Positions 9,800 to 38,892 are shown, numbered from the stretch's first letter. The stretch: 64,000 nucleotides of DNA from Gammaproteobacteria bacterium (GCA_016218365.1 JACREF010000011.1:9094-73093), one strand, 5' to 3'. Made by a program: numbers and translations. The notes: a model not told the origin generated them from the sequence alone.

Positions 9800-10759
9800 C
9801 TATCCTCCGATCAGCGCCGAGCCGGTGGCCAGCAATAGTAATGAAGTGGTGATAACCGAGGCAATGATCAAAAAACGGTATCGTGGTGGCCTTTCCTTGT
9901 GGATGGCGCATTCAGTGTCGGCGATGGCGCGTTTCATGTGCATCCTGGTGATCCGGGTGTCACCCTTGCCATAGGCGCTCATCAGTGACTTGTGAGCGAG
10001 GATATTGACCAGGCGCTGCGTGCCACCACTGGCCCGATAAAGCAGACCCAGTGCCGGCGTGGTGAATGGAGACGGACCCTGGTAGCCGGCGATCTGTAAG
10101 CGATGCATGACATAACTGTCCAGTTCGACCTTGTGCAGCGGTTTCAGTTCGTAGGAGAAGCCAATGCGCTGTTTCAACTGACGGATCAATGGCTGGTCAA
10201 GTCTTTTATCAAGCTCAGGCTGGCCAAACAATACGATCTGGATCAGTTTGCGCTGCTGGGTCTCGAGGTTGCTGAGCATGCGCAGCACATCCAGTGTCTC
10301 GATAGGCATCGCATGGGCCTCGTCAAAGCACAGGACGATGGTATGCCGACGCTGGGCATAGGTGTCGATGATGAACTTGTTGAGTTTCTTCAGCAGTTGG
10401 TGTTGATGGACATTTTCCGGGTAGTCGATGCCGAATTCATCAGCGATGGCTGTCAGCAGTGTCAGTGGCTCAAGATAAGGGTTTGGAATATAGGCGACCA
10501 GGTAGCGGCCGCGCAGGGTATTGATCAGCATGCGGCACAGCAGGGTCTTGCCGGTGCCGATCTCGCCTGTGATCTTGATGAAGCCCTCGCCACTGTGCAG
10601 GGCGATCAGCAGTGTATTAAGCGCGATGCTGTAAGAATTATGTTGATAGATAAATTTTGTATTGGGGGTCAGCGAGAACGGGTGTTCGCGCAGACCGAAG
10701 TGCCGTGAATACAGCCAGGTCTGGTCATGCGCGCTTATCGAGTTATCTGGCTGAAGCAT
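9800..10759 (-). CDS. mshM: MSHA biogenesis protein MshM (ExeA/GspA-like AAA ATPase)
   Basis: Walker A GEIGTGKT; ExeA-family layout; position between secretin and TPR protein. Confidence 0.8.
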   Translation of the reverse strand: MLQPDNSISAHDQTWLYSRHFGLREHPFSLTPNTKFIYQHNSYSIALNTLLIALHSGEGFIKITGEIGTGKTLLCRMLINTLRGRYLVAYIPNPYLEPLTLLTAIADEFGIDYPENVHQHQLLKKLNKFIIDTYAQRRHTIVLCFDEAHAMPIETLDVLRMLSNLETQQRKLIQIVLFGQPELDKRLDQPLIRQLKQRIGFSYELKPLHKVELDSYVMHRLQIAGYQGPSPFTTPALGLLYRASGGTQRLVNILAHKSLMSAYGKGDTRITRMHMKRAIADTECAIHKERPPRYRFLIIASVITTSLLLLATGSALIGG

Positions 10760-10768
10760 GGTTCTTGT

Positions 10769-12469
10769 TTACGGTGATGATGACATCTGGCTGGTACGTT
10801 CCATGGTGTCGTTGATCATAGAGCTCCAGGTCGAGGCATTTTCGATCACGGTTGGCTTTAACAGGATGACCAGTTCCTTTTTGATGCGCGTCATCTTCTG
10901 GTGTTTGAACAGATTGCCGAGCAGCGGGATGTCGCCGAGCAACGGAATCGACGCGTCCGCGTCGCTGCTGGCCTCTTTCATCAGGCCGCCGATGATCACC
11001 ACCTGACCGTTCTTGGCGCGCACCATGTTGTCGGATTCCTGGATGCTGCTGAAGGCCAGTGGCAGGCTGAACTTCTGGTCGCTGACGGTGAAGGTCTTGT
11101 CGCGCTGCGTGACATCACTGACCGTTGGATGAATATGCAACGTGATGTTGTTGTTCTGGTCAATCTGTGGGGTGACGTCCAGGGCGATGCCGGAGAAGAA
11201 GGGGGTCAATTCAACCTCCGGGGCGCTGGTAGTGCTGGCGCCACTGGAGATCTGGCTGTTGCTGAGGCGGGTGACGAAGAATTCATCACCCCCGACCTTG
11301 ATCACGGCCTTCTGGTTGTTGACGGTGGAGATGCGCGGGCTGGACAGTACATGTACGCTGCCCTGGGTCTGCAGCATTTCGATAAAGGCCGCGAAGCCGG
11401 CCGCCTTCATTGATAGTGTGAAGATGCCGCCAAAGGCGGTGGTCTGTGCCGAATCGATCGGCAGATAGCCGGTACCCGGATTGAGGTCGCCTGCTGATCC
11501 GGCGATATTGCTGAGGCGGGTGCCGCCGAGCAGTGTCCCGCCGCCGATCTGCGATGCGGTGATGCTGGTGCTTGATTCGTTACCCAGCCCCCCCCAGTTG
11601 ATGCCGCTTTGAAATGAATTATTGAGCTCAACCTCAATGATCTTGGCCTCAAGGATAACCTGACGATTGACATTTAGTTGAGTAAGATTGAGAAAACGTT
11701 CGACCAGTTCCAGCTCGTTGGGCAATGCGTGGACGATGACCAGGCCAGCCTGGGGGTTGACCAGGGTCTTGCGGCCATCCTTGTCACCAATCAGCGCCGT
11801 CAATGAGCCCTGCAATTCCTTCCAGAAATCGCTATTTGATTTGGTCTCGACTTTGATGTTGTCATTCTGTGATGTCTGTGTACTGGCAGCTGTGGAGCCG
11901 CTGCCGGAGGACTGGGTCAGCTCGCCACCGCCCACTCGGGTCTGAGACTGGCCGCTACGGTTGAGGTTGAGGTAATCAACATGATAGATACGGGTCTGCA
12001 TTCCTTTACCCAGAATGACAAAGTTGTTGCCGTCACGGCTGTAGTCATAGCCGTATACACGCTTGATGGTCTTGAGTGTCTCTTCGATGGTCACATTTTT
12101 CAGATGTAGCGAGATCGATCCGCTGACCGAAGGATGGAAGGCGATGCTGTACGGGGTATCCTTGACCAGGCTGATCAATAGATCACGGACTGGCGTATTG
12201 TTGGTGGCCAGGTCAAAGCGCAGTTCCTTTGCCAGATGCTGCTTGCCCTTGGACGCACTGTTGAGTGGCGGCAGCATGGCCTGGCTGACGCTTTCCGGCA
12301 CAGTGGCTTCGGCGGCTACCGCATCCTGGTGGGCACGTTGCAGCATCGAGGTGATCTTTTTATGGGTCTGATCGCTCCACTGTCCGGGGTTGCTGGCGCA
12401 GCCGAACAACAGGGCCGTCGCAGCCATTATGCAGGATAAGGCGAACAATGACTTGATGGATCTGTTCAT
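10769..12469 (-). CDS. mshL: MSHA secretin MshL (GspD/PilQ family), lipoprotein signal
   Basis: Lipobox LLFGC; N0/N1-like domains; C-terminal secretin motif (VIIGGL...IPLLGDIPLLGNLF). Confidence 0.85.
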   Translation of the reverse strand: MNRSIKSLFALSCIMAATALLFGCASNPGQWSDQTHKKITSMLQRAHQDAVAAEATVPESVSQAMLPPLNSASKGKQHLAKELRFDLATNNTPVRDLLISLVKDTPYSIAFHPSVSGSISLHLKNVTIEETLKTIKRVYGYDYSRDGNNFVILGKGMQTRIYHVDYLNLNRSGQSQTRVGGGELTQSSGSGSTAASTQTSQNDNIKVETKSNSDFWKELQGSLTALIGDKDGRKTLVNPQAGLVIVHALPNELELVERFLNLTQLNVNRQVILEAKIIEVELNNSFQSGINWGGLGNESSTSITASQIGGGTLLGGTRLSNIAGSAGDLNPGTGYLPIDSAQTTAFGGIFTLSMKAAGFAAFIEMLQTQGSVHVLSSPRISTVNNQKAVIKVGGDEFFVTRLSNSQISSGASTTSAPEVELTPFFSGIALDVTPQIDQNNNITLHIHPTVSDVTQRDKTFTVSDQKFSLPLAFSSIQESDNMVRAKNGQVVIIGGLMKEASSDADASIPLLGDIPLLGNLFKHQKMTRIKKELVILLKPTVIENASTWSSMINDTMERTSQMSSSP

Positions 12470-19482: not shown

Positions 19483-21186
19483 TCAGTCTTCCATGCCGAA
19501 GCAGACGCGTTCCGCCTCGTCCATGGTGGTGATCCCCTTGATGGCCAGTTCCATGGCCCGCCACTGGATGCTGCGATAGCCGGGTTGCCGGGTTGCCAGC
19601 TGGTTGAGCTCAGCGATGTTGCGGTTGTGCAGTGCCTGGGAGATGGTCGGGTCAATCTCCAGCAGTTCATAGACCGGCATCCGGCCATGGTATCCGGTAT
19701 TGTCGCACTGGCTGCAGCCCTGGCCTTTCCTGAACAGCGCCTGTTTGGGCAGGCCGCCGGCGATCTTCTTGATCAGTTCCAGGTGAGGTGCCGAGGGCTG
19801 GTCGGGTGCGGCACAGTGGCTGCAGATCTTGCGCAGCAGACGTTGTGACAGGATGCAGCGTAATGTCGCGGCGATCAGATACGATTCGGCGCCCATGTCG
19901 ATCAGGCGCAACATGGTGGATACGGCATCGTTGGTGTGCAAGGTCGACAGCACGGTGTGGCCGGTCATCGCGGCACGCAGCGCAATCTCCATCGTTTCCT
20001 GGTCACGCATTTCGCCGATCAGCAGGATGTCGGGGTCCTGACGCAGCATGGAGCGCAATACCCTGGCAAAGGTCAGATCGATCTTGGGCTTGATCTGGAC
20101 CTGCATGATGCCGGGCAGATGATATTCGACCGGGTCCTCGGCGGTGATGATCTTGACGTTGGGGGTATGCAGTTCATTGAGCGCGGCATAGAGTGTCGTG
20201 GTCTTGCCGCAGCCGGTCGGGCCGACGGCCAGGATCATGCCATGTGGCTGATGGATGATCCTGCTGAACGAATCGCGGATCCGGGCCGGCATGCCCAGCT
20301 TGTCCAGCCCCAGTATCGCCTTGGACTGGTACAACAGACGCATGACGACGGTCTCATGATGCAGCAGCGGCATCGTCGACAGACGCACATCGAGCTGCTG
20401 GTTCAGGATATGGATCTTGAAGCGGCCGTCCTGGGGCAGGCGTTTCTCCGAGATATCAAGCTCGGACATCAGTTTCAGGCGTGAGATCAGTGCCGGGACC
20501 AGCTGTGCGGGGATGACGTTCTTGATCACCAGGATGCCGTCGACGCGAAAGCGTATCCGCAGTTCTTCATCGTGTGGTTCCAGGTGTATGTCCGAGGCCT
20601 GTGCCTTGACGGCATCCTCGAGGATGTCGGTCAGCAGCTTGTTGACGGGTGTCAGTTCGTCTGTCTTGGGCTGCGCCTGCTCCGGCATGGGTGTTGCGCG
20701 TTTCAGATCATTGATCTGCTGCGTCAGCGCGGCCGTGGCGCTGCTGTGGCGGTAGATGTTATCAAAGACCTGCAGCAGCGCATGTTCACTGACCAAGGTG
20801 ATCTGCAGCGTTTGTTTTAGCAGCAGCCTGATCTCGTCGCAAGCAAGGACATCGGTCGGATCCGACATACCGACCAGGATGTCTTTCCCTTTCCTGTCGA
20901 TGGCAATGGCGCGGTAGCGGCGTGCCTGGACCTCCGGGATCAGGTGACTGACGTCGGGTTTGATCGGATATTGCTGCAGATCGGTGTAGGGTATGCCCAG
21001 CTGACTGGCGGTCGTTTCAAGGATCGTCTGCTCGTCGATCGCACCCATGTTGATCAGGATCTGGCCGATCTTTTCCTGTCCGGATTGATGCGCCAGCGCA
21101 TAGTTGAGCTGATCGGCAGTGATCAGCCCTTTTTGCAGCAGGAGATCGCCGATACGTATTTTTTGAATTTTATGTTGTGCGGCCAT
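19483..21186 (-). CDS. mshE: MSHA extension ATPase MshE (GspE family, N-terminal T2SSE_N/MshEN domain)
   Basis: N-terminal IGDLLLQKGLITADQLNYALAHQ...RLGQILINMGAIDEQT (MshEN-type c-di-GMP-binding repeat); Walker A GPTGCGKTTT; tetracysteine motif. Confidence 0.9.
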   Translation of the reverse strand: MAAQHKIQKIRIGDLLLQKGLITADQLNYALAHQSGQEKIGQILINMGAIDEQTILETTASQLGIPYTDLQQYPIKPDVSHLIPEVQARRYRAIAIDRKGKDILVGMSDPTDVLACDEIRLLLKQTLQITLVSEHALLQVFDNIYRHSSATAALTQQINDLKRATPMPEQAQPKTDELTPVNKLLTDILEDAVKAQASDIHLEPHDEELRIRFRVDGILVIKNVIPAQLVPALISRLKLMSELDISEKRLPQDGRFKIHILNQQLDVRLSTMPLLHHETVVMRLLYQSKAILGLDKLGMPARIRDSFSRIIHQPHGMILAVGPTGCGKTTTLYAALNELHTPNVKIITAEDPVEYHLPGIMQVQIKPKIDLTFARVLRSMLRQDPDILLIGEMRDQETMEIALRAAMTGHTVLSTLHTNDAVSTMLRLIDMGAESYLIAATLRCILSQRLLRKICSHCAAPDQPSAPHLELIKKIAGGLPKQALFRKGQGCSQCDNTGYHGRMPVYELLEIDPTISQALHNRNIAELNQLATRQPGYRSIQWRAMELAIKGITTMDEAERVCFGMED

Positions 21187-21354
21187 ACCTGGGTCAAGGA
21201 GTAATCAGGGTTACACAGCGGTTAGCGACTTTCTGCAATAAAACTTTATTATCTGGAATGTTGGAGCGGGTGGCGCGTCGCCCGTAAGGTCAAGGCACGG
21301 CGGACCGGGTCGATAAGGATTGCAGGGTTTGCCGGGGCAATAGCATGGTGGTGA

Positions 21355-21726
21355 TTGAGTATGAGTAATACGGTATTGATCGTTGATGATTCTACGGTGG
21401 CGCGCAAGATGATGATCAAGGCGCTGCCGGAGGGTTTTCAGTGTGCGGTGACCGAGGCTGCAGATGGCCAGAAGGCGCTGGAGTTGTGTCGGCAGCAGCA
21501 TTTTGACGTGATCTTTCTCGACCTGACGATGCCGGTGCTGGATGGCTATGCCACGCTCAGGGCGTTACAGGAGGCTGGATATCAGTCCTTTATCTGTGTG
21601 GTGTCGGCAGATGTCCAGCCGCAGGCCCGCGACAGTGTATTGGCGCTGGGTGCCCGTGCCTTTCTGAAAAAGCCGGTATGGACCGAGGAGCTGGCGACGG
21701 TGCTGCGTGAAAACGGCTTCATGTAG
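21355..21726 (+). CDS. Single-domain CheY-like response regulator
   Basis: VLIVDDS...D(55-equivalent)...K receiver fold; 123 aa; divergent from mshE. Confidence 0.85.
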   Translation: MSMSNTVLIVDDSTVARKMMIKALPEGFQCAVTEAADGQKALELCRQQHFDVIFLDLTMPVLDGYATLRALQEAGYQSFICVVSADVQPQARDSVLALGARAFLKKPVWTEELATVLRENGFM

Positions 21727-30340: not shown

Positions 30341-30733
30341 CTATGGCAGCATCGCATCATGTGGCGTTGCGACCCGTCTGGAGAGTTGCAGCGCATGGTC
30401 GTCGTTCCCGTACGACCATGTCACCTCGACCCCGAGCTGGCGGGCATCGGGTAGCGCCGCATCGCTTGTGACCGTCCACTGCCGGGTATAGCGCACACCA
30501 TTTTCATCGGCCTGGTCACTGCCGGGCATCAACTGATCGATGCCGCCGGTGGCGGTCTGTTGTTGCAGCAGCTCGATCTGCTGCTGCGCCAGGTTCAGCG
30601 CGGCGCCCTGTTGGCGGCTGTATTGCAGCTGCAGCCGGCTGTCGATGACCAGCGACAGCAAGGCCAGCAGGCCGATGGTCATGATCAGCATCGTCACCAG
30701 CGCCTCGATCAGGGTAAAGCCGTTGCGCATCAT
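30341..30733 (-). CDS. pilV: Type IV pilus minor pilin PilV-like
   Basis: MMRNGFTLIEALVTMLIMTIGLLALLSL prepilin-type N-terminus. Confidence 0.65.
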   Translation of the reverse strand: MMRNGFTLIEALVTMLIMTIGLLALLSLVIDSRLQLQYSRQQGAALNLAQQQIELLQQQTATGGIDQLMPGSDQADENGVRYTRQWTVTSDAALPDARQLGVEVTWSYGNDDHALQLSRRVATPHDAMLP

Positions 30734-30735
30734 GG

Positions 30736-31206
30736 TCAGAAATCCCGCCAGGTACCCGGCAGCTGCGACACCTGCCAGCGGCCGTTGTACGGCGTTCGAT
30801 ACAGATACTGCTGTTGTATCATGACACCCTCATCGACCGTCAGCGGTGATTGTACGCTGACCAGCAGATAATCCGGGTAGCGGCGGTCGCGCGTCAGCTG
30901 CAGCGTTGCCCCGGCAGATGGGGCAGGGATCATGGCCTGCTGGGCGTAGCTGTCGATGTCCAGCCAGACCGGATCATTCATGCGCAGCCATTGCACCGCA
31001 TACTCAAACGCCGAGTCGGCCGCGGCCTGTGCCCGACGCAGCTGATGTTCATTACCCTGCATCCGTGTCGTCGCCAGCGTGTTGCTGGCAACGACCTGGA
31101 CCAGCAGCCCGGCGGCGAGCAGCATCAGCAGTGCGATGACCAGCGTTGTGCCGCCATGCTGGCGGTGGTGGCGATCAGAGGCGACTGAGCAGTGGATTGC
31201 GCACAT
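30736..31206 (-). CDS. pilX: Type IV pilus minor pilin PilX-like (PilX_N domain; exact start uncertain)
   Basis: QHGGTTLVIALLMLLAAGLLVQVVASNTL hydrophobic PilX_N-type segment. Confidence 0.45.
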   Translation of the reverse strand: MCAIHCSVASDRHHRQHGGTTLVIALLMLLAAGLLVQVVASNTLATTRMQGNEHQLRRAQAAADSAFEYAVQWLRMNDPVWLDIDSYAQQAMIPAPSAGATLQLTRDRRYPDYLLVSVQSPLTVDEGVMIQQQYLYRTPYNGRWQVSQLPGTWRDF

Positions 31207-31849
31207 GGATCTGTTCCTGCAGCGTATGACGGGTATGCGGCTGACCCTGCAGCTGGCCAGCGAGCGTGATGCCGATCAGCATGTCACCGACGCATGCTGC
31301 GCCCGTGCTGCAAGGCGAGCTCGTTGCCATCGCGTGATGGACGGTGTCGAGTGTGAATTGCAGCGTGGTGATCTCGATACCGGCCGTCGTGATGTCCTGC
31401 CACTGGCCGCTGCTGCAGGCGGCGGCGCTCGCACTGCTGCGGGTCTCCAGTGCGCCGCTGCGCTGCCGGTACCCGAACAGTTCCAGGCTGCCATCGTTGA
31501 CGAGGCCGTCACCGTCGAGGTCATAACTGAACGTGATGCAGGAATCGGCCGCCTCGCTGACGGTGGCGCGCGCCAGCCGCGGCCGGGTGGCGGGCTGCAG
31601 AAACGGGTTGTCATACAGTGACGCGGCGGAGCCCGGTTGCCAGTGCCAGTAACCGGCGCGGCGCAGGTCACGGGTCATCAACAACACGGTGCTGCGCAGT
31701 TCATGTTCAAGGCGTAACTGGCCCAGCTGCCGCTGACTGCTTGCGGCAAGCTGCAGCCAGGCATTGAGCAGCGTGGCGAGCAGCAGCAGGCCGAGCAGGC
31801 TGCCGAGCAGCAGTTCAATCAGCGTCATCCCGCGTTGCCGGGTCAACAT
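31175..31849 (-). CDS. pilW: Type IV pilus minor pilin PilW-like (start set at MLTRQRGMTLIELLLG)
   Basis: Prepilin-type N-terminus; ORF-track upstream extension lacks pilin features and overlaps the FimT-like gene. Confidence 0.55.
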   Translation of the reverse strand: MLTRQRGMTLIELLLGSLLGLLLLATLLNAWLQLAASSQRQLGQLRLEHELRSTVLLMTRDLRRAGYWHWQPGSAASLYDNPFLQPATRPRLARATVSEAADSCITFSYDLDGDGLVNDGSLELFGYRQRSGALETRSSASAAACSSGQWQDITTAGIEITTLQFTLDTVHHAMATSSPCSTGAACVGDMLIGITLAGQLQGQPHTRHTLQEQIHVRNPLLSRL

Positions 31850-32397
31850 AGCGGATAGCCATTGAATAATGACGTGCTGGCCGGATTGCAGATGCGCACC
31901 CGACCCGGCAGGCTGACGCGCACCTGCAGGCTGTCGGCATATTGATTTTTCAATACCACGGTGCCAAAGCCGGCGGTAGCGCGCAGCGGTGCAAACGTCG
32001 TGTAACGCTGGGTGCCAAAGCGGGCCTGCGGCATCGCGATGCCGGGGTAGTCGGCGGCCTGGCCGGTCATCATTTCCACCGTGCCATGGCGCTGCAGCTG
32101 GCAACGATTGCTCAGTGCGCCAGCGCTGCAATCACAGTCCGGCAGCTCGCCGATGCCATAGCACCACGGCCCGGTATCGCCGGGGCGAAAGCTGACATGC
32201 AAGGCTTGATTGCGCCGCAGCGCCTCGGAGCGGGTGAACTGCAGTGTGCGGGTGATGTCCTGCGCCGCCGCGGCCAGCCGCTGGCGGCCGACCAGCCGGC
32301 CATAGGCCTCACCGCCAGCCAGCGTCAGCACGGCGAGCACGATCAAGACCAGCAGCAGTTCGGCGAATGTGACGCCGCGTTGTACATCCTGGTACAT
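31843..32397 (-). CDS. fimT: FimT/FimU (GspH-like) minor pilin
   Basis: QRGVTFAELLLVLIVLAVLTLAG degenerate prepilin N-terminus; GspH/FimT-type downstream helix (AAAAQDITRTLQFTRSEALRRN). Confidence 0.55.
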   Translation of the reverse strand: MYQDVQRGVTFAELLLVLIVLAVLTLAGGEAYGRLVGRQRLAAAAQDITRTLQFTRSEALRRNQALHVSFRPGDTGPWCYGIGELPDCDCSAGALSNRCQLQRHGTVEMMTGQAADYPGIAMPQARFGTQRYTTFAPLRATAGFGTVVLKNQYADSLQVRVSLPGRVRICNPASTSLFNGYPLC

Positions 32398-32500
32398 ATA
32401 AGGCGCGCCTCCATGCGCGAAGAAACAAAAATACGCCGATCCTGCGTTGCCGGCAAGTGCCGGATGGTCTGTTATACTGCGTCGACTACGGAGAATCCTG

Positions 32501-33538
32501 ATGGCGCAGCTGCATATCGTAATGTCGGACCTGCTCGGCAGCTGGCCGGCGCCACAGTTAAAGGCGGCGAGCGCCGGGCTCGACGTGTCGTTGCTCGAGC
32601 GTGTATTGTCGCGCGCCGTTTGTCATGAAATCTCCGGCCCACCGGCTCACCTGCCGTTGCTGACGAGGCTGTTTGACTGGCCAGCTGATCAAGACGTGCC
32701 GGTCGCGGCACTGACATCCTTGATCGACCGGCCCGGACACAAGGCCGCTTATACGTTGCGCGCCGATCCGGTGCATCTGAAGGCTGACCGTGACCGCGTC
32801 GTGTTGTACCGGGCGCGCGATCTCGCGGTCACTGACACAGAGGCGCAGCAGCTCGTGACCGACATCAACACGCAGCTGGCCGAACCCGGCTGGCAGCTCA
32901 GCGCAGATCATCCGTCACGCTGGTATGTCGATGTGGTTGCACCGCCGGAGGGCCTGATTACGCAGCCGCCCGATGCGGCGCTGGGCCAGGACATCTTCCC
33001 ATGCCAGCCGTCCGGGGCATCCGGCGGCCTGTGGCGCCGCCGCATCAACGAGATCCAGATGCTGCTGCATGAGCATCCGCTTAACGTTGCGCGTGCCGCT
33101 CACGGCCAGCATGAGATCAACAGCCTGTGGCTGTGGGGCGGCGGAGTATTACCAGAGTCCGCACCGCGATTGGCGTGGCACCAGGTTTTCACGGCTGATC
33201 CGCTGGCCGCGGGCCTGGCGCGATGTTGTAACATCCGCTTGATCGATCAAGCCATGACTGCCGAGCAGTTGTTGTCACATCTGCAACCCGGCGCGCCGCA
33301 GTTGCTGATCATTGAACGCGGGCCCGAGGCGATCGCACTCGGCGACGGAGTGTCGTGGCGGCAGCGGCTGGAACAATGGACCAACGACTGGCTGTCACCG
33401 TTACTGAAGGCGATGACGCATGGCGAGATCGAAGAATTAATCCTCTATCCCGGCAATGGCCGCAGCTACCAACTGACCCGCTGGCGCTGGCGGCTCGGTT
33501 GGCGGCCGCGGCCGCTGGCGGGGTTTGCAGCGGGTTGA
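32501..33538 (+). CDS. Hypothetical protein (345 aa)
   Basis: ATG with GGAG RBS; no confident motif assignment (LWLWGGG segment noted); small hairpin cgggttgaacccg overlaps the stop. Confidence 0.4.
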   Translation: MAQLHIVMSDLLGSWPAPQLKAASAGLDVSLLERVLSRAVCHEISGPPAHLPLLTRLFDWPADQDVPVAALTSLIDRPGHKAAYTLRADPVHLKADRDRVVLYRARDLAVTDTEAQQLVTDINTQLAEPGWQLSADHPSRWYVDVVAPPEGLITQPPDAALGQDIFPCQPSGASGGLWRRRINEIQMLLHEHPLNVARAAHGQHEINSLWLWGGGVLPESAPRLAWHQVFTADPLAAGLARCCNIRLIDQAMTAEQLLSHLQPGAPQLLIIERGPEAIALGDGVSWRQRLEQWTNDWLSPLLKAMTHGEIEELILYPGNGRSYQLTRWRWRLGWRPRPLAGFAAG

Positions 33539-33583
33539 ACCCGGTTACTGATTGCAGTCACAGGTATATTATAGAAAATTTTT

Positions 33584-34348
33584 CTATGATCCCGGTTTTG
33601 TTTTTTTATTTCTCGGCTTCTTCCGTGGCGTTCTTACTGTAAGCTGATCATTTGATGACTCTTGGTGGGCCAGAAAGATTGAATCCACTAGTCGACTGCA
33701 GCTTGAAGTAACGCGAGCGAGCACTTTTATTTGTTCCCTGCATGACAAGCTATCAGCCTTTAGAGGGTAGTTAATTTGATGGTCAACTTCACCCCATACC
33801 TCTTCCATGAGCGTGCGTACCTGTATCTCGCAGGTCAGCTCAGTTCTGGTATTGGGCTGTACCACGTAGTGTACGCTGGTGTACATAGTTTTAGAATCTT
33901 CAGTAGCAACTCCGATTTTGGAAAAGTATTCGCGAGATTCATCGTCCCAGGTTCGTGCGCATGGCCCCTCTATTATCAGCCATCTCTGTTCATTAAAGAT
34001 CTCCAAAAGCACGGAATTAATATCTTCAATTTGCTTTGTGTGAAGGTGAAGAATTCTAAAGCCAGCTAAATCGTTAATTTCTTTGAATAGATTTTCGAGA
34101 GTGTAAGGGAATTCTGTAGATTTAGTCTTTGCTTCTAGTCCTTTGCGAATCAATTTTTCGCGAAGATGTTCAGGATCTTTGACTCTCCCTTTCACGGAGT
34201 GAGCAAGTTTCTTCAGCTTCGTGGAAGTTTCGACGTAGCCCGCCAGCTGGGATAGCAACAAAGTAAAGCTTGGCTGGTTATCAACATAATGTTGCACCAA
34301 TCTGTCTATCAGTTTCAATTCAGCTGCGCGAAGCTTGGATGGCATCAT
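33584..34348 (-). CDS. RelA/SpoT-domain nucleotidyltransferase (small alarmone synthetase / toxSAS-like), Lys-rich C-terminal tail
   Basis: G-loop HSVKGRVKDPEHLREKLIRK; catalytic DLAGFRIL; TMYTSVHYVV; EIQVRTLMEEVWGEVDHQINY (canonical synthetase motifs in order); low-GC codon usage; ATGA overlap with the ParA-like gene. Confidence 0.8.
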   Translation of the reverse strand: MMPSKLRAAELKLIDRLVQHYVDNQPSFTLLLSQLAGYVETSTKLKKLAHSVKGRVKDPEHLREKLIRKGLEAKTKSTEFPYTLENLFKEINDLAGFRILHLHTKQIEDINSVLLEIFNEQRWLIIEGPCARTWDDESREYFSKIGVATEDSKTMYTSVHYVVQPNTRTELTCEIQVRTLMEEVWGEVDHQINYPLKADSLSCREQIKVLARVTSSCSRLVDSIFLAHQESSNDQLTVRTPRKKPRNKKTKPGS

Positions 34349-35370
34349 GAGTCCGTCGGGATGATCTCTGTGCGCTGGATGATGTGTTTGGCGATACGTT
34401 CGAATTCTGCTTTTGCTTCCGTTTTCTGCGCTTGGGTTCCGCCATTCACCAATGCAAAAGGCTGCCCCTGTTCTTGTGCAAGGGTTGCTAATCCTCCAAA
34501 ATCCTTTACTTGACCGAGTTTATTCTGGCTAAAAGATGCGCTTGCCAAGTCTTTATCAATTCGGCGAAGAACGGTAGCAATCTCGCTGTTGGCAGTTTTC
34601 TCCAGTTTTGCAACATATGGCGCAAAACTTCCGGAGATCGCTCCTCCATACATGCGGAACTTTTGCAGTATATAGCCCATAAATTTTGGTCTCCCTGGCA
34701 GTAGCATCATTCCGTCAGGCGCTAGCTGAGAAATCACCTGCCAATCTTTAATCCATGACGAGAGAGAGTGCCCAAGTGTGCTAAGCGCTCTGGTCGAAAA
34801 AAGGTCGCATGCAGCCGGGACGATGAAATAGTCGCAATCAAGCAGTACCACGCGATTTAGGGCGCCAATATTCGGGCCGACATCGTAGAAAACGAAGTCA
34901 GCTTTGATTTGTGTCGCAACTATATTTACTACTTCGCTTATTGCAGATGCGCCACGAAAGCCGCGCATCTTTCTTTGCAAACATTCAGTCCAAATTAGCT
35001 GCAAGTCTTGTTCAAATTCTGAGAGGCGAATATCTCCAGGTATTAGAAATATATTCTTTAGGCGTTCAGGAGGCTTTACTTCGCGAACTTCTCCCGTCGA
35101 TTCTGCGATAGGCTTGATTGAAGACCAAATGGTGACTCCAGTTTCCGAATCCGAATTATCGAGCCAGTCATCAACCACGCCTGGTTCGACTAGATATGAA
35201 GTGAGATTACATTGAGGATCTGCGTCAACTAGTAGGACACGCTTTCCAATATCTGCGAGGGCTGAAGCAATGTTAACAGTTAGCGTAGTTTTACCTACGC
35301 CGCCCTTATGGTTGTATAGGGCCAATCGTATAGATGGGTGACGAGAATCTCGAAGGGATTTACGCGCCAT
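34345..35370 (-). CDS. ParA/MinD-family deviant Walker A ATPase with ~90-aa C-terminal extension
   Basis: KGGVGKTT deviant Walker A, VDADPQ A' motif, hydrophobic-D Walker B (FVFYDVGPN); TAATG overlap with upstream ORF; no parB/centromere partner. Confidence 0.85.
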   Translation of the reverse strand: MARKSLRDSRHPSIRLALYNHKGGVGKTTLTVNIASALADIGKRVLLVDADPQCNLTSYLVEPGVVDDWLDNSDSETGVTIWSSIKPIAESTGEVREVKPPERLKNIFLIPGDIRLSEFEQDLQLIWTECLQRKMRGFRGASAISEVVNIVATQIKADFVFYDVGPNIGALNRVVLLDCDYFIVPAACDLFSTRALSTLGHSLSSWIKDWQVISQLAPDGMMLLPGRPKFMGYILQKFRMYGGAISGSFAPYVAKLEKTANSEIATVLRRIDKDLASASFSQNKLGQVKDFGGLATLAQEQGQPFALVNGGTQAQKTEAKAEFERIAKHIIQRTEIIPTDS

Positions 35371-35954
35371 TATTCATTTGCGCTCTTGAGCGTTTTTGTT
35401 TGGGGTTTGCGCGACTTTCGCTTTTTGCGTATTCCTTCGGTGCCGGACTTCGCGGCATCGCGGTCGGGTAGATGTTGTATGTAGAGTTCTCCAGCCGCGC
35501 TTATTTGCTTGTTACCCTTAACCGCTTGAACAAGTAGCCCGGCCTTGGCGGCATTGTCAACAGCAATCGACGCATTTGAAAATTTAGGTTGAGCAGCCTC
35601 AGTATTTAAGGTGCTTATATCCAAGGTTTTAAAGTAAGGGGTTTCACGATAATGCGTGAGATAGTATGCAAGGCAAGTAACTCTTTCCACATCAGTGCGA
35701 GGAGCTTTTTCGCGCATAAAATCCTTCGGCGAGACAGTTCTATCTTCAGAGAAAGTTGAACTGTTAAAAGGAGAGCTTATAACTGATGAGGAGGGTGAGG
35801 CCGTCCTAGATGGGCTATGATTTCCCTGCAGAGAGAGATCGAGGAACGTTGCCACAGCTTGTAAAGTTCTCTGTTGGTCTTCCTTGCTCAGCTTTTTTAG
35901 AGCAGCAATTATCTCAGTCAATATATCGAAATCATTAGGGGAGACTGGGTCCAT
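35370..35954 (-). CDS. Hypothetical protein: N-terminal helical segment, S/P-rich linker, C-terminal domain with Lys/Arg-rich tail
   Basis: First gene of the low-GC operon; GAGG RBS; KKRKSRKPQTKTLKS tail suggests nucleic-acid binding. Confidence 0.5.
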   Translation of the reverse strand: MDPVSPNDFDILTEIIAALKKLSKEDQQRTLQAVATFLDLSLQGNHSPSRTASPSSSVISSPFNSSTFSEDRTVSPKDFMREKAPRTDVERVTCLAYYLTHYRETPYFKTLDISTLNTEAAQPKFSNASIAVDNAAKAGLLVQAVKGNKQISAAGELYIQHLPDRDAAKSGTEGIRKKRKSRKPQTKTLKSANE

Positions 35955-36171
35955 ATTTTTGCCTCATTAAAGAGTGATTTTTGTATATGCTTCAAAACTA
36001 CCTGATTATATTATATATATCAATACGACAATGAAGAAGTAGCGGAAATTATCCGGGACAGCCCCTCTTTGTTTTGTGAGCGATTGCATGAGAATCCGTG
36101 TCAGAGAGGATTTTTTCGTATTAGCAATATTTGTTTTCTGTCCTGGTTTTTTTGCACAAAAAATACAAGTT

Positions 36172-36957
36172 CTACTTCGTGCTGACCGGCTTGCGGAACT
36201 TGAACAAGAACTTGTCGGTCTTGCCGCGGATCGCCGGGTCGAACACCTTGGCGCTATGGTCGTCGTCGGCGTTAAGCAGCGCATCGGACTGGCCGGCCAG
36301 TTCAAAGCCGGCGGCCAGCACCTCGGCCTTCACGGTCGCGGCATCGATGCGGTGCAGTGTCTCGGTGTCGCGCAGGCCTGAGCCTGGCGCGGCGGCGTGG
36401 TCGACGATGACATACAGCCCGCCGGGTTTCAGCGCATCGAAGATCGCCTTGTTGACCTTTGCCAGATCGGCCGGGCCGAAGAAGCTGTCATGCAGGTCAT
36501 GGTAGTTCATCGAGGTCCAGACCACGTCGAGTGTTTCGGGTGCCTTGAAGGCATTGACCGCTGGCTTGATGACGGTGACATTCGCATAGTGCGGGTCGGC
36601 GGCGATGGCGGCGACGGCCGCATCGGCGTTCTTCCGCATCCCGAACAGCTCTTCGGGCACCACGGCATACACATGACCATGTTGGCCGACGATGGTTGAA
36701 AACAGCCGCGTGACGTAGCCACCACCCGGGATGAAATCCGCCACCCGGTCACCCGGCTTGATGCCGGTGAACGTCAACACCGCTAGCGGTTTGCGCTCGG
36801 CATCCTGTGCACGGTCGGTGTCCGGCCGCGCGGGATCGGCGATCGCCGCGGCGATCTGGTCCTGCGCGCTCGCCGCCGAGCCGGCCAGCGCCAGCGGAGA
36901 CAAGAGTGAAAGCAGCACGGCAGTGAACAATAAAGCTCTGGATGTATTGTTAATCAT
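36172..36957 (-). CDS. Secreted class I SAM-dependent methyltransferase-like protein
   Basis: Start at MINNTS with AAGGAGG RBS; signal peptide; FTGIKPGDRVADFIPGGGY SAM-binding-like motif. Confidence 0.65.
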   Translation of the reverse strand: MINNTSRALLFTAVLLSLLSPLALAGSAASAQDQIAAAIADPARPDTDRAQDAERKPLAVLTFTGIKPGDRVADFIPGGGYVTRLFSTIVGQHGHVYAVVPEELFGMRKNADAAVAAIAADPHYANVTVIKPAVNAFKAPETLDVVWTSMNYHDLHDSFFGPADLAKVNKAIFDALKPGGLYVIVDHAAAPGSGLRDTETLHRIDAATVKAEVLAAGFELAGQSDALLNADDDHSAKVFDPAIRGKTDKFLFKFRKPVSTK

Positions 36958-37152: not shown

Positions 37153-38892
37153 ATGACAACGACCCGAACCATCATCCGCCGTGACGCAGCTGATGCCGGT
37201 CTGCCGTGGCCGGATGATGCGCTGCACCCGGTGCTGGCGCGCGTTTACCGGCAGCGCGGCATCGAGTCGCCGCAGCAGCTGGAGCGTTCGCTGGATCGCT
37301 TGCTGCCGTATCAGTTGCTCGGTGGTCTGAATGAGGCGACGGCGCTGCTGTATCAGGCGCTGGTCGAACACTGGCGGGTCATCGTCATCGGTGATTTCGA
37401 TGCCGACGGCGCGACCAGCACCGCGGTCGCGGTGCGTGCGTTGCGGATGATGGGCGCGGCCGATGTTGATTTCCTGGTGCCGAACCGCTTTCGTTTTGGT
37501 TACGGGCTGACGCCGGAGATCGTCGAGGTCGCGGCGCAGCGCCGACCGCAGCTGATTATCACCGTCGACAACGGCATCGCCAGCCACGCCGGTGTGGCGG
37601 CCGCCAATGCGCTGGGCATTCGCGTGCTGGTCACCGATCACCACCTGCCGGCCGACACGCTGCCGGCGGCCGAGGCGATCGTCAATCCGAACCTGCCCGG
37701 CGATCCATTTCCGAGCAAACACCTGGCCGGTGTCGGCGTGATCTTCTATGTGATGCTGGCCTTGCGTGCCTTGCTGCGCAGCACTGGCTGGTTCGCCGCG
37801 CGCGGCCTGGCCGATCCGAACCTGGCGCAGTTGCTCGACCTGGTCGCGCTCGGCACCGTCGCCGATGTCGTGCCGCTCGATCAGAATAACCGCATCCTGG
37901 TCGGCCAGGGGCTGGCGCGCATCCGCGGTGGCCAGGCCTGCGCCGGCGTGCGCGCCTTGATCCGGATTGCCGGTCGCGATGCGAGCCGGCTCAGCGCCGC
38001 GGACCTGGGGTTCGCGCTCGGGCCGCGGCTCAATGCCGCCGGCCGGCTTGAAGACATGTCGCTGGGGATCGCCTGTCTGCTGTGCGACGATGAACCGCGC
38101 GCGCTGGGCATGGCCGGGCAGCTCGATGTGCTGAATGTCGAACGGCGCCGCATCGAGCAGGACATGAAGGACGAGGCGCTGGCCGGCCTCGCCGGCTTGC
38201 AACTGGACGACGCGGAGCTGCCGTATGGGCTATGCCTGTACGATCCGGCCTGGCATCAGGGCGTCATCGGCATCCTGGCCTCGCGGATCAAGGAGCGCTT
38301 TCACCGCCCGACGGTGGTGTTTGCCAATGGCGATGACGGTGAGATCAAGGGTTCGGCGCGCTCGATCCCGGGGCTGCCGATCCGCGATGTGCTGGAGGCG
38401 GTCGCGACCCGCCATCCGGGGCTGCTGAGCAAGTTCGGCGGTCACAGCATGGCGGCCGGGCTGACATTGCCGGTTGCGCGTTATGACGATTTCTGTCAGG
38501 CCTTTGAGCACGAGGTGCGGCAGCGGCTGACGGCCGCCGACCTGCAGCCGGTGGTGCACAGCGACGGCGAGCTGGCGCCCGACGAGCTGACGCTGGACCT
38601 GGCCGAGCTGCTGCGCAGCGCCGGGCCGTGGGGTCAGGGCTTTCCGGAGCCGACCTTTGACGGCCGGTTCGAGGTGCTGGAGCGGCGGGTGCTCAACGAG
38701 CGCCACCTCAAATTACGGGTGCGGCCGCAGGGCGGCGGTCAGGCGCTCGATGCGCTGGCCTTCAACGCCGATGCCCGCGATCTGCTCGGCGGTGACCAGC
38801 CGGCGCTGCGGCTGGCCTACCGGCTGGATGTCAATGAATACCGCGGCCAGCGCAGCGTACAGCTGATCGTTGAGCACCTCGAGGCGGTGTGA
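37153..38892 (+). CDS. recJ: Single-stranded-DNA-specific exonuclease RecJ
   Basis: DHH motifs (VIGDFDADGATS, DHH in VTDHHLP), DHHA1 and C-terminal OB domain. Confidence 0.9.
   Translation: MTTTRTIIRRDAADAGLPWPDDALHPVLARVYRQRGIESPQQLERSLDRLLPYQLLGGLNEATALLYQALVEHWRVIVIGDFDADGATSTAVAVRALRMMGAADVDFLVPNRFRFGYGLTPEIVEVAAQRRPQLIITVDNGIASHAGVAAANALGIRVLVTDHHLPADTLPAAEAIVNPNLPGDPFPSKHLAGVGVIFYVMLALRALLRSTGWFAARGLADPNLAQLLDLVALGTVADVVPLDQNNRILVGQGLARIRGGQACAGVRALIRIAGRDASRLSAADLGFALGPRLNAAGRLEDMSLGIACLLCDDEPRALGMAGQLDVLNVERRRIEQDMKDEALAGLAGLQLDDAELPYGLCLYDPAWHQGVIGILASRIKERFHRPTVVFANGDDGEIKGSARSIPGLPIRDVLEAVATRHPGLLSKFGGHSMAAGLTLPVARYDDFCQAFEHEVRQRLTAADLQPVVHSDGELAPDELTLDLAELLRSAGPWGQGFPEPTFDGRFEVLERRVLNERHLKLRVRPQGGGQALDALAFNADARDLLGGDQPALRLAYRLDVNEYRGQRSVQLIVEHLEAV

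Follow-up and report, generated by a model that had tools for sequence, protein, structure and literature searches.

Several toxic small alarmone synthetases (toxSASs) have been described, namely FaRel, FaRel2, PhRel, PhRel2 and CapRel (Jimmy et al., 2020; PMC7229694), and toxSAS toxin-antitoxin (TA) systems had been predicted from conserved, overlapping operons of small alarmone synthetases (SASs) (PMC7229694). Their antitoxins include small proteins, Panacea/DUF4065 proteins, SAH hydrolase and fused pseudo-ZFD domains, and the absence of toxicity has been validated for RelP and RelQ (PMC7229694). In PANGU type I, a YejK-like nucleoid protein (Pag1A) and a GRel toxSAS (Pag1B) are encoded bicistronically; the SAS bears an acidic DNA-mimic C-terminal domain, and the DNA-binding partner activates or licenses the SAS rather than neutralising it (bioRxiv 10.64898/2026.04.06.716658).

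Here, we analysed a 64,000-nucleotide stretch of a Gammaproteobacteria bacterium genome (GCA_016218365.1, JACREF010000011.1:9094-73093; hereafter the window), in which a RelA/SpoT-fold SAS (C) is encoded together with a ParA-class ATPase (B) and a predicted winged-helix protein (A). As in toxSAS systems, a small synthetase of the RelA/SpoT fold whose catalytic motifs are intact is found in a tight, often overlapping operon of two to three genes, which occurs in many phyla and on mobile DNA including prophages. However, a ParA-class ATPase and a winged-helix protein take the place of the described antitoxins, and C is nearer RelQ/RelP than the solved toxSAS structures. With PANGU, which comes nearest in concept, the trio has in common a SAS effector and a DNA- or nucleoid-binding partner, and licensing of this kind could equally be exerted by a ParA ATPase bound to the nucleoid. 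Membership in PANGU was rejected: neither A nor B has a match to a YejK/NA37 family, A being a MarR/PadR-like winged helix, C is single-domain with a basic or absent tail, and there are three genes (B and C in prophages) versus two.

The order of a DNA-binding regulator, a middle protein and an enzyme toxin is also that of omega-epsilon-zeta (pSM19035), a tripartite TA system whose omega partners the ParA-type ATPase delta. This system is plasmid-borne and has a small antitoxin instead of an ATPase in the middle; the gene order is the same as in A-B-C, whereas the protein families are unrelated. AbiE (type IV TA) is similar in that a winged-helix first gene (the AbiEi antitoxin) is followed by a polymerase-beta-superfamily nucleotidyltransferase effector (AbiEii), and AbiE pairs adjoin some trio loci. 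Unlike the trio, AbiE has no ATPase, and membership was rejected because A has no AbiEi match and C no AbiEii match (Pfam, PADLOC), C belonging to PF04607 and not to PF08843.

No catalogued system in PADLOC-DB v2.0.0 was matched by A, B and C: A had no match, B matched only PDC-M28B over 42 Walker-A residues, and the matches of C were weak (E >=4e-4). Scans of the three proteins against Pfam, NCBIfam and PHROG also returned no catalogued system, and we found in the papers searched neither a description of a SAS coupled to a ParA-type ATPase nor a validated precedent for a ParA-type ATPase as antitoxin or sensor. A first-pass annotation of the window, made from the sequence alone, had named no described system of this kind and had suggested a search of the defence catalogues; both PADLOC v2 and the papers searched agree with it. 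That PADLOC shows no relation to any validated system, and that no such precedent for a ParA-type ATPase was found, count against reading the operon as a TA or abortive-infection module. The trio looks like a previously undescribed and widespread kind of SAS-based module with a ParA-class partner.

The low-GC island and its three genes

The island (33539..36171, no strand assigned) is bordered on either side by the 3' end of a host gene, the two genes being convergent, and interrupts neither of them, one being a plus-strand ORF with its 3' end at 33538 and the other a minus-strand class-I SAM methyltransferase-like ORF with its 3' end at 36172. In the window composition scan, GC was 0.40-0.49 over 33600-36199 versus 0.60-0.70 in the flanks, and among the 1-kb bins of the 64-kb window the island kilobases (0.455 and 0.450) were the minimum, all others being at least 0.53. 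The AT-rich island between intact convergent genes proposed at first pass is therefore confirmed, as is the claim that it holds no integrase, transposase, parB or centromere-like repeat. No repeat array or replication gene was found inside the 2.6-kb island either; repeats within it were at chance level, direct or inverted repeats flanking it did not exceed chance, and neither target-site duplication nor terminal inverted repeats were found as insertion scars. The methyltransferase-like ORF had weak Pfam matches, and its fold-level likeness to another methyltransferase was confirmed. As a candidate module member upstream of A it was rejected, for its likeness to the neighbour at locus L094 is that of the generic class-I fold (32% over 127 aa).

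All three genes are on the minus strand, and their coordinates and overlapping junctions were confirmed as first read. Gene A (35370..35954, 194 aa) is the first gene of the operon, and its stop codon overlaps the start of gene B (34345..35370, 341 aa) in a TAATG (35368..35372); the stop of B in turn overlaps the start of gene C (33584..34348, 254 aa; 253 aa from the NCBI start one codon downstream) in an ATGA (34345..34348). These overlaps had been taken to mean obligate co-translation, which goes too far, since overlap is only the commonest state: in 65 loci most junction gaps fell between -11 and +12 nt, -4 being the most frequent value, and the B-C junction had this family mode of -4 in 15 of them.

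The AT-rich 5' leader (35955..36171, minus strand, GC ~0.40) is the presumed promoter/operator region and probably acts as the operon promoter. A strict sigma-70 scan gave no site in 35955-36171, and neither an intrinsic terminator nor a canonical sigma-70 promoter was convincing for the operon. No conserved operator was detected upstream of A, as 7-, 8- and 10-mers were at shuffle level and no palindrome was conserved in 65 upstream regions.

Features of the three proteins

C matched RelA_SpoT (PF04607, E = 2e-17), and all of its catalytic motifs (RxK, DxxGxR, YxxxH and ExQxRT) align to RelQ/RelP, in agreement with its initial assignment to the RelA/SpoT synthetase fold. The DxxGxR Mg/ATP motif is DLAGFR (residues 93-98, 34055..34072, minus strand; D93, G96 and R98 invariant), and the ExQxRT catalytic motif is EIQVRT (residues 174-179, 33812..33829, minus strand; E174, Q176, R178 and T179 invariant); together with these, R55, K57, Y156 and H160 are invariant or nearly so. 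The protein is a single domain with no extra C-terminal domain. Its nearest solved sequences are RelQ/RelP (2be3, 3l9d, 6fgk and 6ewz), and whether the single C sequence or a profile was used, no solved toxSAS chain was found at E<0.01, whereas RelQ/RelP did reach this level. In Foldseek with the AlphaFold2 model (pLDDT 80), RelQ (5ded/5dec) and RelP (6ewz) were on top and CapRel was at rank 40. In sequence and fold, C is nearer housekeeping-type RelQ/RelP than the solved toxSASs.

This position among validated non-toxic enzymes (PMC7229694) favours an accessory signalling role, in which C would be a regulated RelQ/RelP-like (p)ppGpp synthetase that tunes stress tolerance, persistence or biofilm, with B and A timing it, and in which the operon would have spread horizontally through host benefit, not as a toxin or immune system. 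Housekeeping genes as the majority of neighbours, and the absence of an antitoxin-like small protein and of an alarmone hydrolase, also fit such a role, which we nevertheless consider rather unlikely in view of the distribution described below.

Many C homologues stop directly after LVDSIF, and the Lys-rich tail is no family feature of C. Lys-rich tails of both A and C had been the first-pass argument for nucleic-acid, possibly tRNA, binding; the tail is conserved in A, but the argument fails for C because its tail is not.

B is a long ATPase of the ParA/MinD deviant Walker-A class, as first proposed, with Pfam matches to AAA_31 (8e-29) and CbiA (7e-18). PHROG 164 aligns to it over the full length (2e-42), and its top PDB match is 3PG5, an uncharacterised protein of 361 aa (2e-32). 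The deviant Walker A motif KGGVGKTT with the signature lysine (residues 22-29, 35284..35307, minus strand) is invariant in the family, the Walker A, A' and B motifs are invariant or nearly so, and in 65 sequences the conservation of KGGVGKTT, DxDPQCN, GPNxGxLN and DLFSxRAL is 95% or higher. Both enzyme active sites, that of B and that of C, are under selection. Orphan long ParA genes on plasmids show ~30% identity to B over 93-96% of its length, and their length and C-terminal extension, like those of 3PG5, are common with B. Although B carries every motif of the ParA class, the trio, unlike ParA/MinD positioning systems, has no ParB, centromere or plasmid context, and B is strictly coupled to a SAS.

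A had zero family matches in Pfam, NCBIfam, PADLOC and PDB sequences, and is predicted to be a novel protein of DNA-binding type; 1979 homologues and 1282 clusters at 50% identity were counted. Its N-terminal two-helix hairpin (residues 9-37, 35844..35930, minus strand; AlphaFold2 pLDDT 81-86) is conserved and is kept in A-like proteins without B-C. Residues 76-172 (35439..35729, minus strand) form a winged-helix domain, MarR/PadR-like in fold, which contains the invariant LNTEAAQPK segment. The Lys/Arg-rich C-terminal tail (residues 176-190, 35385..35429, minus strand) is conserved and predicted to be disordered, the last 25 residues of A having a family mean of 8.8 K+R. A role of this tail as ParA-stimulating peptide was weakened, as A-like proteins without B retain it. 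That C is nearest to the non-toxic RelQ/RelP and that A has no conserved operator also count against the TA or abortive-infection reading.

A ParA-family ATPase adjoining the gene of a small, predicted DNA-binding protein, with AAA_31/CbiA matches and KGGVGKTT as in type I ParABS, would fit an integrated element with an ordinary partition or positioning system, made up of ParA and a centromere-binding protein, in which the SAS would be an unrelated passenger. However, A was found on 0 of 72,556 plasmids, its profile had no match in 2.9 million viral contigs, and a later viral scan with the C profile found A on only one contig; the trio sites are chromosomal and scattered. The island is only 2.6 kb long without replication or integration genes, it has no centromere repeats, and no k-mer or motif is conserved upstream of A (65 loci). 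The DNA-binding gene comes first, the opposite of type I par operons, B-type ATPases on plasmids accompany a separate genuine ParA/ParG pair, and C co-evolves with A and B (see below). Plasmid partition, which had been named at first pass as the plain alternative, does not describe this locus; partition in general is largely refuted by these observations, and we regard it as highly improbable.

Distribution and mobility of the trio

Outside the window, the trio is conserved in varying contexts: A-B-C are closely spaced and keep the same order in 69 of the 78 species-level genomes with A, which represent at least 15 phyla. Correlation of the A, B and C distance matrices gave r = 0.54-0.61, whereas permutation reached at most 0.22. 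C has evolved together with A and B, and A-B-C is one conserved mobile unit. Its spread is patchy over at least 15 phyla at 55-80% identity. In 50 of 59 hosts the trio has a lower GC content than its flanks, and in none a higher one (median difference -8.7 points). The immediate neighbours are unrelated housekeeping genes that vary by genome, no conserved fourth gene lies beside the trio, and IS-disrupted or inactivated copies occur. The initial suggestion of horizontal acquisition is upheld by this composition and these neighbours, and the island as a horizontally acquired, self-contained element is supported. The module was found in no complete E. coli genome, which makes E. coli a clean heterologous host.

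Genes of defence or TA type lie near a subset of loci, including SRA-HNH with Imm11, an integrase with a faint HEPN match, HigB/HTH_37, and CBASS with GmrSD, and Type I restriction-modification is directly 3' of the trio in some loci. Among the 250 nearest neighbours, AbiE, restriction-modification, DarG, SoFic and SNF2 defence helicases were present; defence-type genes made up ~15-20 of the 250, a raw count without a matched control, with housekeeping neighbours at most loci. Neither an alarmone hydrolase nor a small antitoxin of the classical kind was detected beside the trio. This, the predominance of housekeeping neighbours and the uncontrolled count speak against the TA or abortive-infection reading, whereas the defence- and TA-type genes near a subset of loci favour a conflict role.

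A diverged pair of B-like and C-like genes without A was identified as cargo in P2-like prophages, between gpV and gpS and on the opposite strand to them. Its motifs are intact, it has the same ATGA overlap as the window operon, and its GC is 0.36 versus 0.62-0.65 in the flanks. The gpV-gpS place is a classic moron position, being empty in phage ENT90 and having a different gene in a Yersinia phage; it is absent from the hotspots named in the P2 hotspot literature. Since A is missing from this pair, the core of the module is B plus C.

On the other hand, A is also found with other cargo. At one syntenic site it is the leading gene before B-C-hsdMSR, before hsdMSR without B-C, or before an unknown protein of 223 aa. 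An independent pairing of A with Type I restriction-modification was weakened, because the same clade also has A-B-C-hsdMSR and loss of B-C explains A-hsdMSR equally well. A HEPN identity of the alternative cargo proteins is no more than a lead: the Rx4-6H motif is present, yet Pfam and NCBIfam gave no support even at E<=10. Because the prophage versions do without A, and A also heads other cargo, it looks like an accessory DNA-binding regulator and not an equal partner of B. The first-pass annotation had proposed that A and B sense or neutralise C; in the reading preferred here, B would be the direct partner of C and A an accessory.

The same observations bear on the remaining alternatives. 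A patchy spread over at least 15 phyla at 55-80% identity with consistently foreign GC, AT-rich cargo in P2-like prophages, adjoining defence and TA genes, an A protein common to restriction-modification cargo and IS-inactivated copies are traits of a conflict cassette, and they disfavour the accessory signalling role. It was also considered whether the module could be directed against other mobile DNA and not the host, B being a decoy or competing ParA that disturbs the partition or positioning of incoming plasmids or phage-plasmids, with A as DNA adaptor and C adding a nucleotide signal. Nothing indicates that the module interacts with the Par systems of other elements, A is missing from the prophage version, and it would be left unexplained why the coupling to a SAS with intact catalytic motifs is so strict; such interference is very unlikely. 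The toxin or defence role proposed initially is favoured by the neighbours in a subset of loci and by the B-C prophage cargo, but not by the nearest relatives of C, which are RelQ/RelP and not the solved toxSASs.

Possible mechanism and implications

Based on these sequence comparisons, we consider it somewhat probable that the operon is a self-contained, horizontally mobile three-gene module of TA or abortive-infection type. C would be the effector, a catalytically intact RelA/SpoT-fold nucleotide pyrophosphokinase which, when unleashed, would cause growth arrest via alarmones ((p)ppGpp or (p)ppApp) or via pyrophosphorylation of another acceptor. B would be the direct partner of C, an ATP-dependent dimerisation switch that restrains or licenses it and is probably nucleoid-bound while acting, as ParA proteins are. 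A would be accessory, binding DNA with its winged helix and basic tail, and would most likely control the operon, or tether or adapt B. We infer the toxicity of C, its neutralising or activating protein, the trigger and the substrate.

More tentatively, B may be an infection sensor, which in the ATP-bound state on the nucleoid would silence C and upon a phage-induced change of state would license it, leading to cell shutdown. Such a change might follow phage-driven degradation or remodelling of the nucleoid, ATP depletion by the phage or the arrival of a phage protein that binds ParA, and B would then be a ParA-based, independently evolved counterpart of the nucleoid-integrity sensing of PANGU. 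The A family might serve as a shared winged-helix adaptor or regulator through which varied effectors, namely SASs, Type I restriction-modification and the unknown Rx4-6H proteins, come under one kind of control.

If the trio is a toxin or defence system as preferred here, it would be a widespread SAS-based addition, with at least 15 phyla, thousands of C homologues and ~1,300 clusters of A (50% identity). Control would lie with an ATPase of the ParA type, a class known for positioning DNA or protein cargo on the nucleoid and not for immunity. This would extend the recent idea that alarmone synthetases can be licensed by nucleoid-bound sentinel proteins. Two uncharacterised groups would also gain a function, namely the long "orphan ParA" subfamily (PDB 3PG5, IncX plasmid genes) and the A proteins, a family without any annotated domain.

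The island and its operon

The island, part of a 272,597-bp contig from a Gammaproteobacteria MAG, is the most AT-rich portion of the window at 1-kb resolution, with a GC content of 0.40-0.49 versus 0.60-0.70 in the flanks on both sides. It starts beyond the 3' end of a plus-strand ORF (33538) and is bordered on the right by the 3' end of a minus-strand methyltransferase-like ORF (36172). ORF calls placed three minus-strand genes within it, encoding A (194 aa, 35370-35954), B (341 aa, 34345-35370) and C (254 aa, 33584-34348), whose stop and start codons overlap as TAATG at the A/B junction (35372-35368) and as ATGA at the B/C junction (34348-34345). The AT-richness relative to the flanks, the three ORFs and both overlaps had been described in the first-pass annotation, whose statement that the island holds no integrase, transposase or parB also proved correct. 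The public annotation of C (MBI5450618.1, 253 aa) starts at the second of two consecutive ATGs (34343-34345 versus 34346-34348), and with this start B and C would overlap by 1 nt (TGATG) and not by 4 nt (ATGA).

In the surroundings, several minus-strand ORFs at 30700-32400 show, by eye, hydrophobic N-terminal stretches resembling those of type IV pilins or pseudopilins (MTLIELLLGSLLGLLLL and VTFAELLLVLIVLAVL are examples), which suggests that minor-pilin genes are clustered immediately upstream of the gene to the left of the island. To the right of the methyltransferase, a 579-aa plus-strand ORF (37153-38892) encodes, judging by its sequence, a putative single-strand exonuclease RecJ and is overlapped by long antisense ORFs, a common feature of high-GC DNA.

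Conservation and mobility of the trio

The trio forms a genuine operon with clear limits and a wide distribution. Homologues in a set of 5.8 billion proteins numbered 1979 for A and 3551 for C, with repeated agreement in length between the contigs carrying the two, and the A profile search yielded 1282 clusters at 50% identity. When conservation was checked across genomes, as had been proposed earlier, a scan covering a single genome for each species identified 78 loci, distributed over at least 15 phyla, and the order A-B-C was kept in 69 of them. Both junctions were mostly between -11 and +12 nt, with -4 the commonest value (65 cleanly parsed loci). Pairwise distance matrices of the three proteins were correlated (r = 0.54-0.61 versus a permutation maximum of 0.22), which, together with the conserved order and motifs, indicates that the three genes travel together. 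In an Acidobacteriota MAG (L027:10524-12883), B is split by an IS element (transposase ORFs at 10987-12330), and this locus is a decaying copy. The sole archaeal-labelled match, a 2.8-kb contig assigned to Candidatus Micrarchaeota archaeon (L021), carries a bacterial-type trio, and its label probably reflects faulty binning, not a true presence in archaea.

The trio is also mobile. Its GC content was more than 3 points under that of the flanks in 50 of 59 hosts and above it in none (median difference -8.7 points). The immediate neighbours, taken two to a side (250 ORFs), belonged to unrelated housekeeping families, with no conserved fourth gene among them; a minority encoded integrases or transposases, AbiEii or HigB/HTH_37. 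Strong PADLOC matches among these neighbours included AbiE pairs, Type I and Type II R-M components, an SNF2 defence helicase, DarG, SoFic and mad2. About 15-20 of the 250 were defence matches, a raw count with no matched control, so that the presence of defence genes beside the trio is at most suggestive. Individual loci contained SRA-HNH and Imm11 (Stenotrophomonas), an integrase (Paraflavitalea), HigBA (Gallionella) and, in one further genome, CBASS and GmrSD. Complete E. coli genomes gave no match to the module at the DNA level.

Proteins B and C and their relatives

Both active sites are under selection, the catalytic residues of C and the ATPase motifs of B all being invariant or near-invariant across the trio family. 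C is a RelA/SpoT-fold synthetase (PF04607, 2e-17). The RelQ/RelP small alarmone synthetases are its closest solved relatives in searches with the single sequence and with the family profile; neither search matched a toxSAS chain among solved structures at E<0.01. Similarly, the top Foldseek matches of its AlphaFold2 model (pLDDT 80) were RelQ and RelP, with CapRel ranked 40th. Because of this closeness, the trio might instead be a non-toxic signalling module, which we regard as rather unlikely, and it would also fit a PANGU-like model, with a SAS that stays inactive unless it is licensed (bioRxiv 10.64898/2026.04.06.716658). The trio itself is not a PANGU system, since it lacks the YejK-like protein and the acidic DNA-mimic domain and is not bicistronic. 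Its architecture has the defining traits of toxSAS operons (PMC7229694), but the toxSAS antitoxins are absent from it, and the comparisons of C with solved chains gave no assignment to a validated toxic subfamily. An identity with AbiE was rejected. The first-pass annotation had allowed that the module might already be catalogued and knew of no described coupling of a SAS to a ParA-type ATPase; PADLOC v2 contained no matching system, and a literature search of incomplete coverage found no paper on such a coupling. The trio appears to be undescribed so far.

B is a ParA/MinD-class deviant Walker-A ATPase (Pfam AAA_31, 8e-29; KGGVGKTT motif). The closest solved structure is 3PG5 (2e-32), an uncharacterised protein of 361 aa, with Soj/ParA far behind. 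Full-length relatives (about 30% identity over 93-96% of B) occur on 204 plasmids, and these long ATPases are not the partition ATPases of their plasmids. On an IncX1 plasmid, for example, the long ParA adjoins a genuine ParA/ParG pair. The gene in question, a 354-aa orphan of E. coli plasmid NZ_CP135690.1 (WP_012291478.1, L097:3492-4556), shares about 29% identity with B across 93% of the length of B, and approximately 150 further E. coli, Salmonella and Klebsiella plasmids carry an orphan of this kind. Other B-type ATPases lie near an Abi family gene (Pantoea plasmid) or near Fic-type "mobile mystery" genes and a Type I R subunit (Vibrio plasmid). On Burkholderia gladioli plasmid NZ_CP031451.1 (L096:3995-5952), a B-like AAA ATPase gene and a 311-aa hypothetical gene share 4 nt, with an H-NS gene on either side; this pair may be a second two-gene module built on the ATPase subfamily of B.

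A plain partition system based on this ParA-class ATPase is effectively excluded. Confinement of the trio to plasmids had been raised earlier as a sign of such a system, and A had no match in 72,556 PLSDB plasmids. Repeat analysis of the island found none above chance level, and no conserved sequence that could serve as an operator was found upstream of A. The correlated distances of A, B and C and the separate ParA/ParG beside a plasmid B-type ATPase also argue against partition.

The pair of B and C is carried by prophages as well. The C profile matched five IMG/VR viral contigs, one of which (IMGVR_UViG_3300031813_000821, L099:205-2647) has the full A-B-C at the very start of the 'viral' contig, in a segment that may be phage DNA or host flank; the A-pattern scan of viral contigs had overlooked this trio. 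Three others (L100-L102) are P2-like prophages, and their gpJ shares 87% identity with its counterpart in Erwinia phage ENT90. Between gpV and gpS, on the opposite strand, they carry diverged B-like (31% identity) and C-like (39%) genes (L102:3877-5666) with an ATGA overlap, intact catalytic motifs and a GC content of 0.364 versus 0.62-0.65 in the flanks. In ENT90 (L104), gpS directly adjoins gpV with no cargo, and in Yersinia phage vB_YenM_31.17 (L105) the site holds an unrelated 354-aa hypothetical gene (20564-21628), indicating a variable cargo site. We take it to be the orf30 site of P2; in two papers on P2 hotspots, the cos-proximal and Z/fun sites are the only ones named. Another B-like/C-like pair occurs in a fourth prophage type (L103). 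No A gene lies beside any of these prophage pairs, so A is dispensable for B and C, which are the core of the module.

Protein A and the reading of the module

A had no match in Pfam, NCBIfam, PADLOC or PDB sequences. Its structural model (pLDDT 71.5) shows an N-terminal helical hairpin (residues 9-37), a disordered Ser/Pro linker and a disordered basic tail. Lys-rich tails had been noted on both A and C: that of A is a family feature (on average 8.8 K+R within the last 25 residues), and that of C is not, as many homologues stop after LVDSIF.

As the leading gene, A is semi-independent. One clade of sponge-associated Gammaproteobacteria has A-like genes at the head of B-C-hsdMSR, of hsdMSR alone or of a gene for a 223-aa uncharacterised protein. 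The first arrangement is found in L048 (A-B-C at about 10001-12254, followed by three ORFs that reach 18358) and in L094, where an IS element interrupts hsdM. In two loci without B-C (L062:9977-16689 and L092:8001-14789), the A-like gene directly precedes a complete Type I R-M operon (hsdM, hsdS, hsdR), and in L069 (10007-17335) a frameshifted copy of the 223-aa gene lies between A and hsdMSR. This 223-aa protein is the sole cargo after A in L093 (8602-9273), which shares one syntenic site with L092. Elsewhere, the A-like gene is followed by a 247-aa protein with a weak PADLOC PD-T7-3 match (L078:10600-11343; E = 1e-5) or by a 187-aa protein (L082:10753-11316), whose homologues are at L081:4293-4802, again preceded by an A-like gene, and L032:14100-14597. 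The three small proteins replacing B-C in L093, L078 and L082 are mutually unrelated, and all contain Rx4-6H (RRNSLVH, RNSCGH and RNNRDVAH). This motif recalls HEPN RNases, an assignment unsupported by Pfam and NCBIfam. Orphan A-like proteins retain the hairpin, the LNTEAAQPK segment and the basic tail; hence, these features are not specific to B.

On balance, we lean towards a mobile toxin-antitoxin or abortive-infection-type module with C as effector, B as switch and A as accessory. C would act as a nucleotide-pyrophosphokinase effector, B as an ATP-dependent switch in direct control of C, and A as an accessory DNA-binding regulator or adaptor. The toxicity of C, the direction of control (neutralising or licensing), the trigger and the substrate are putative parts of this scheme. 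A role of the ParA-type ATPase as a sensor, if true, would raise the interest of the module.
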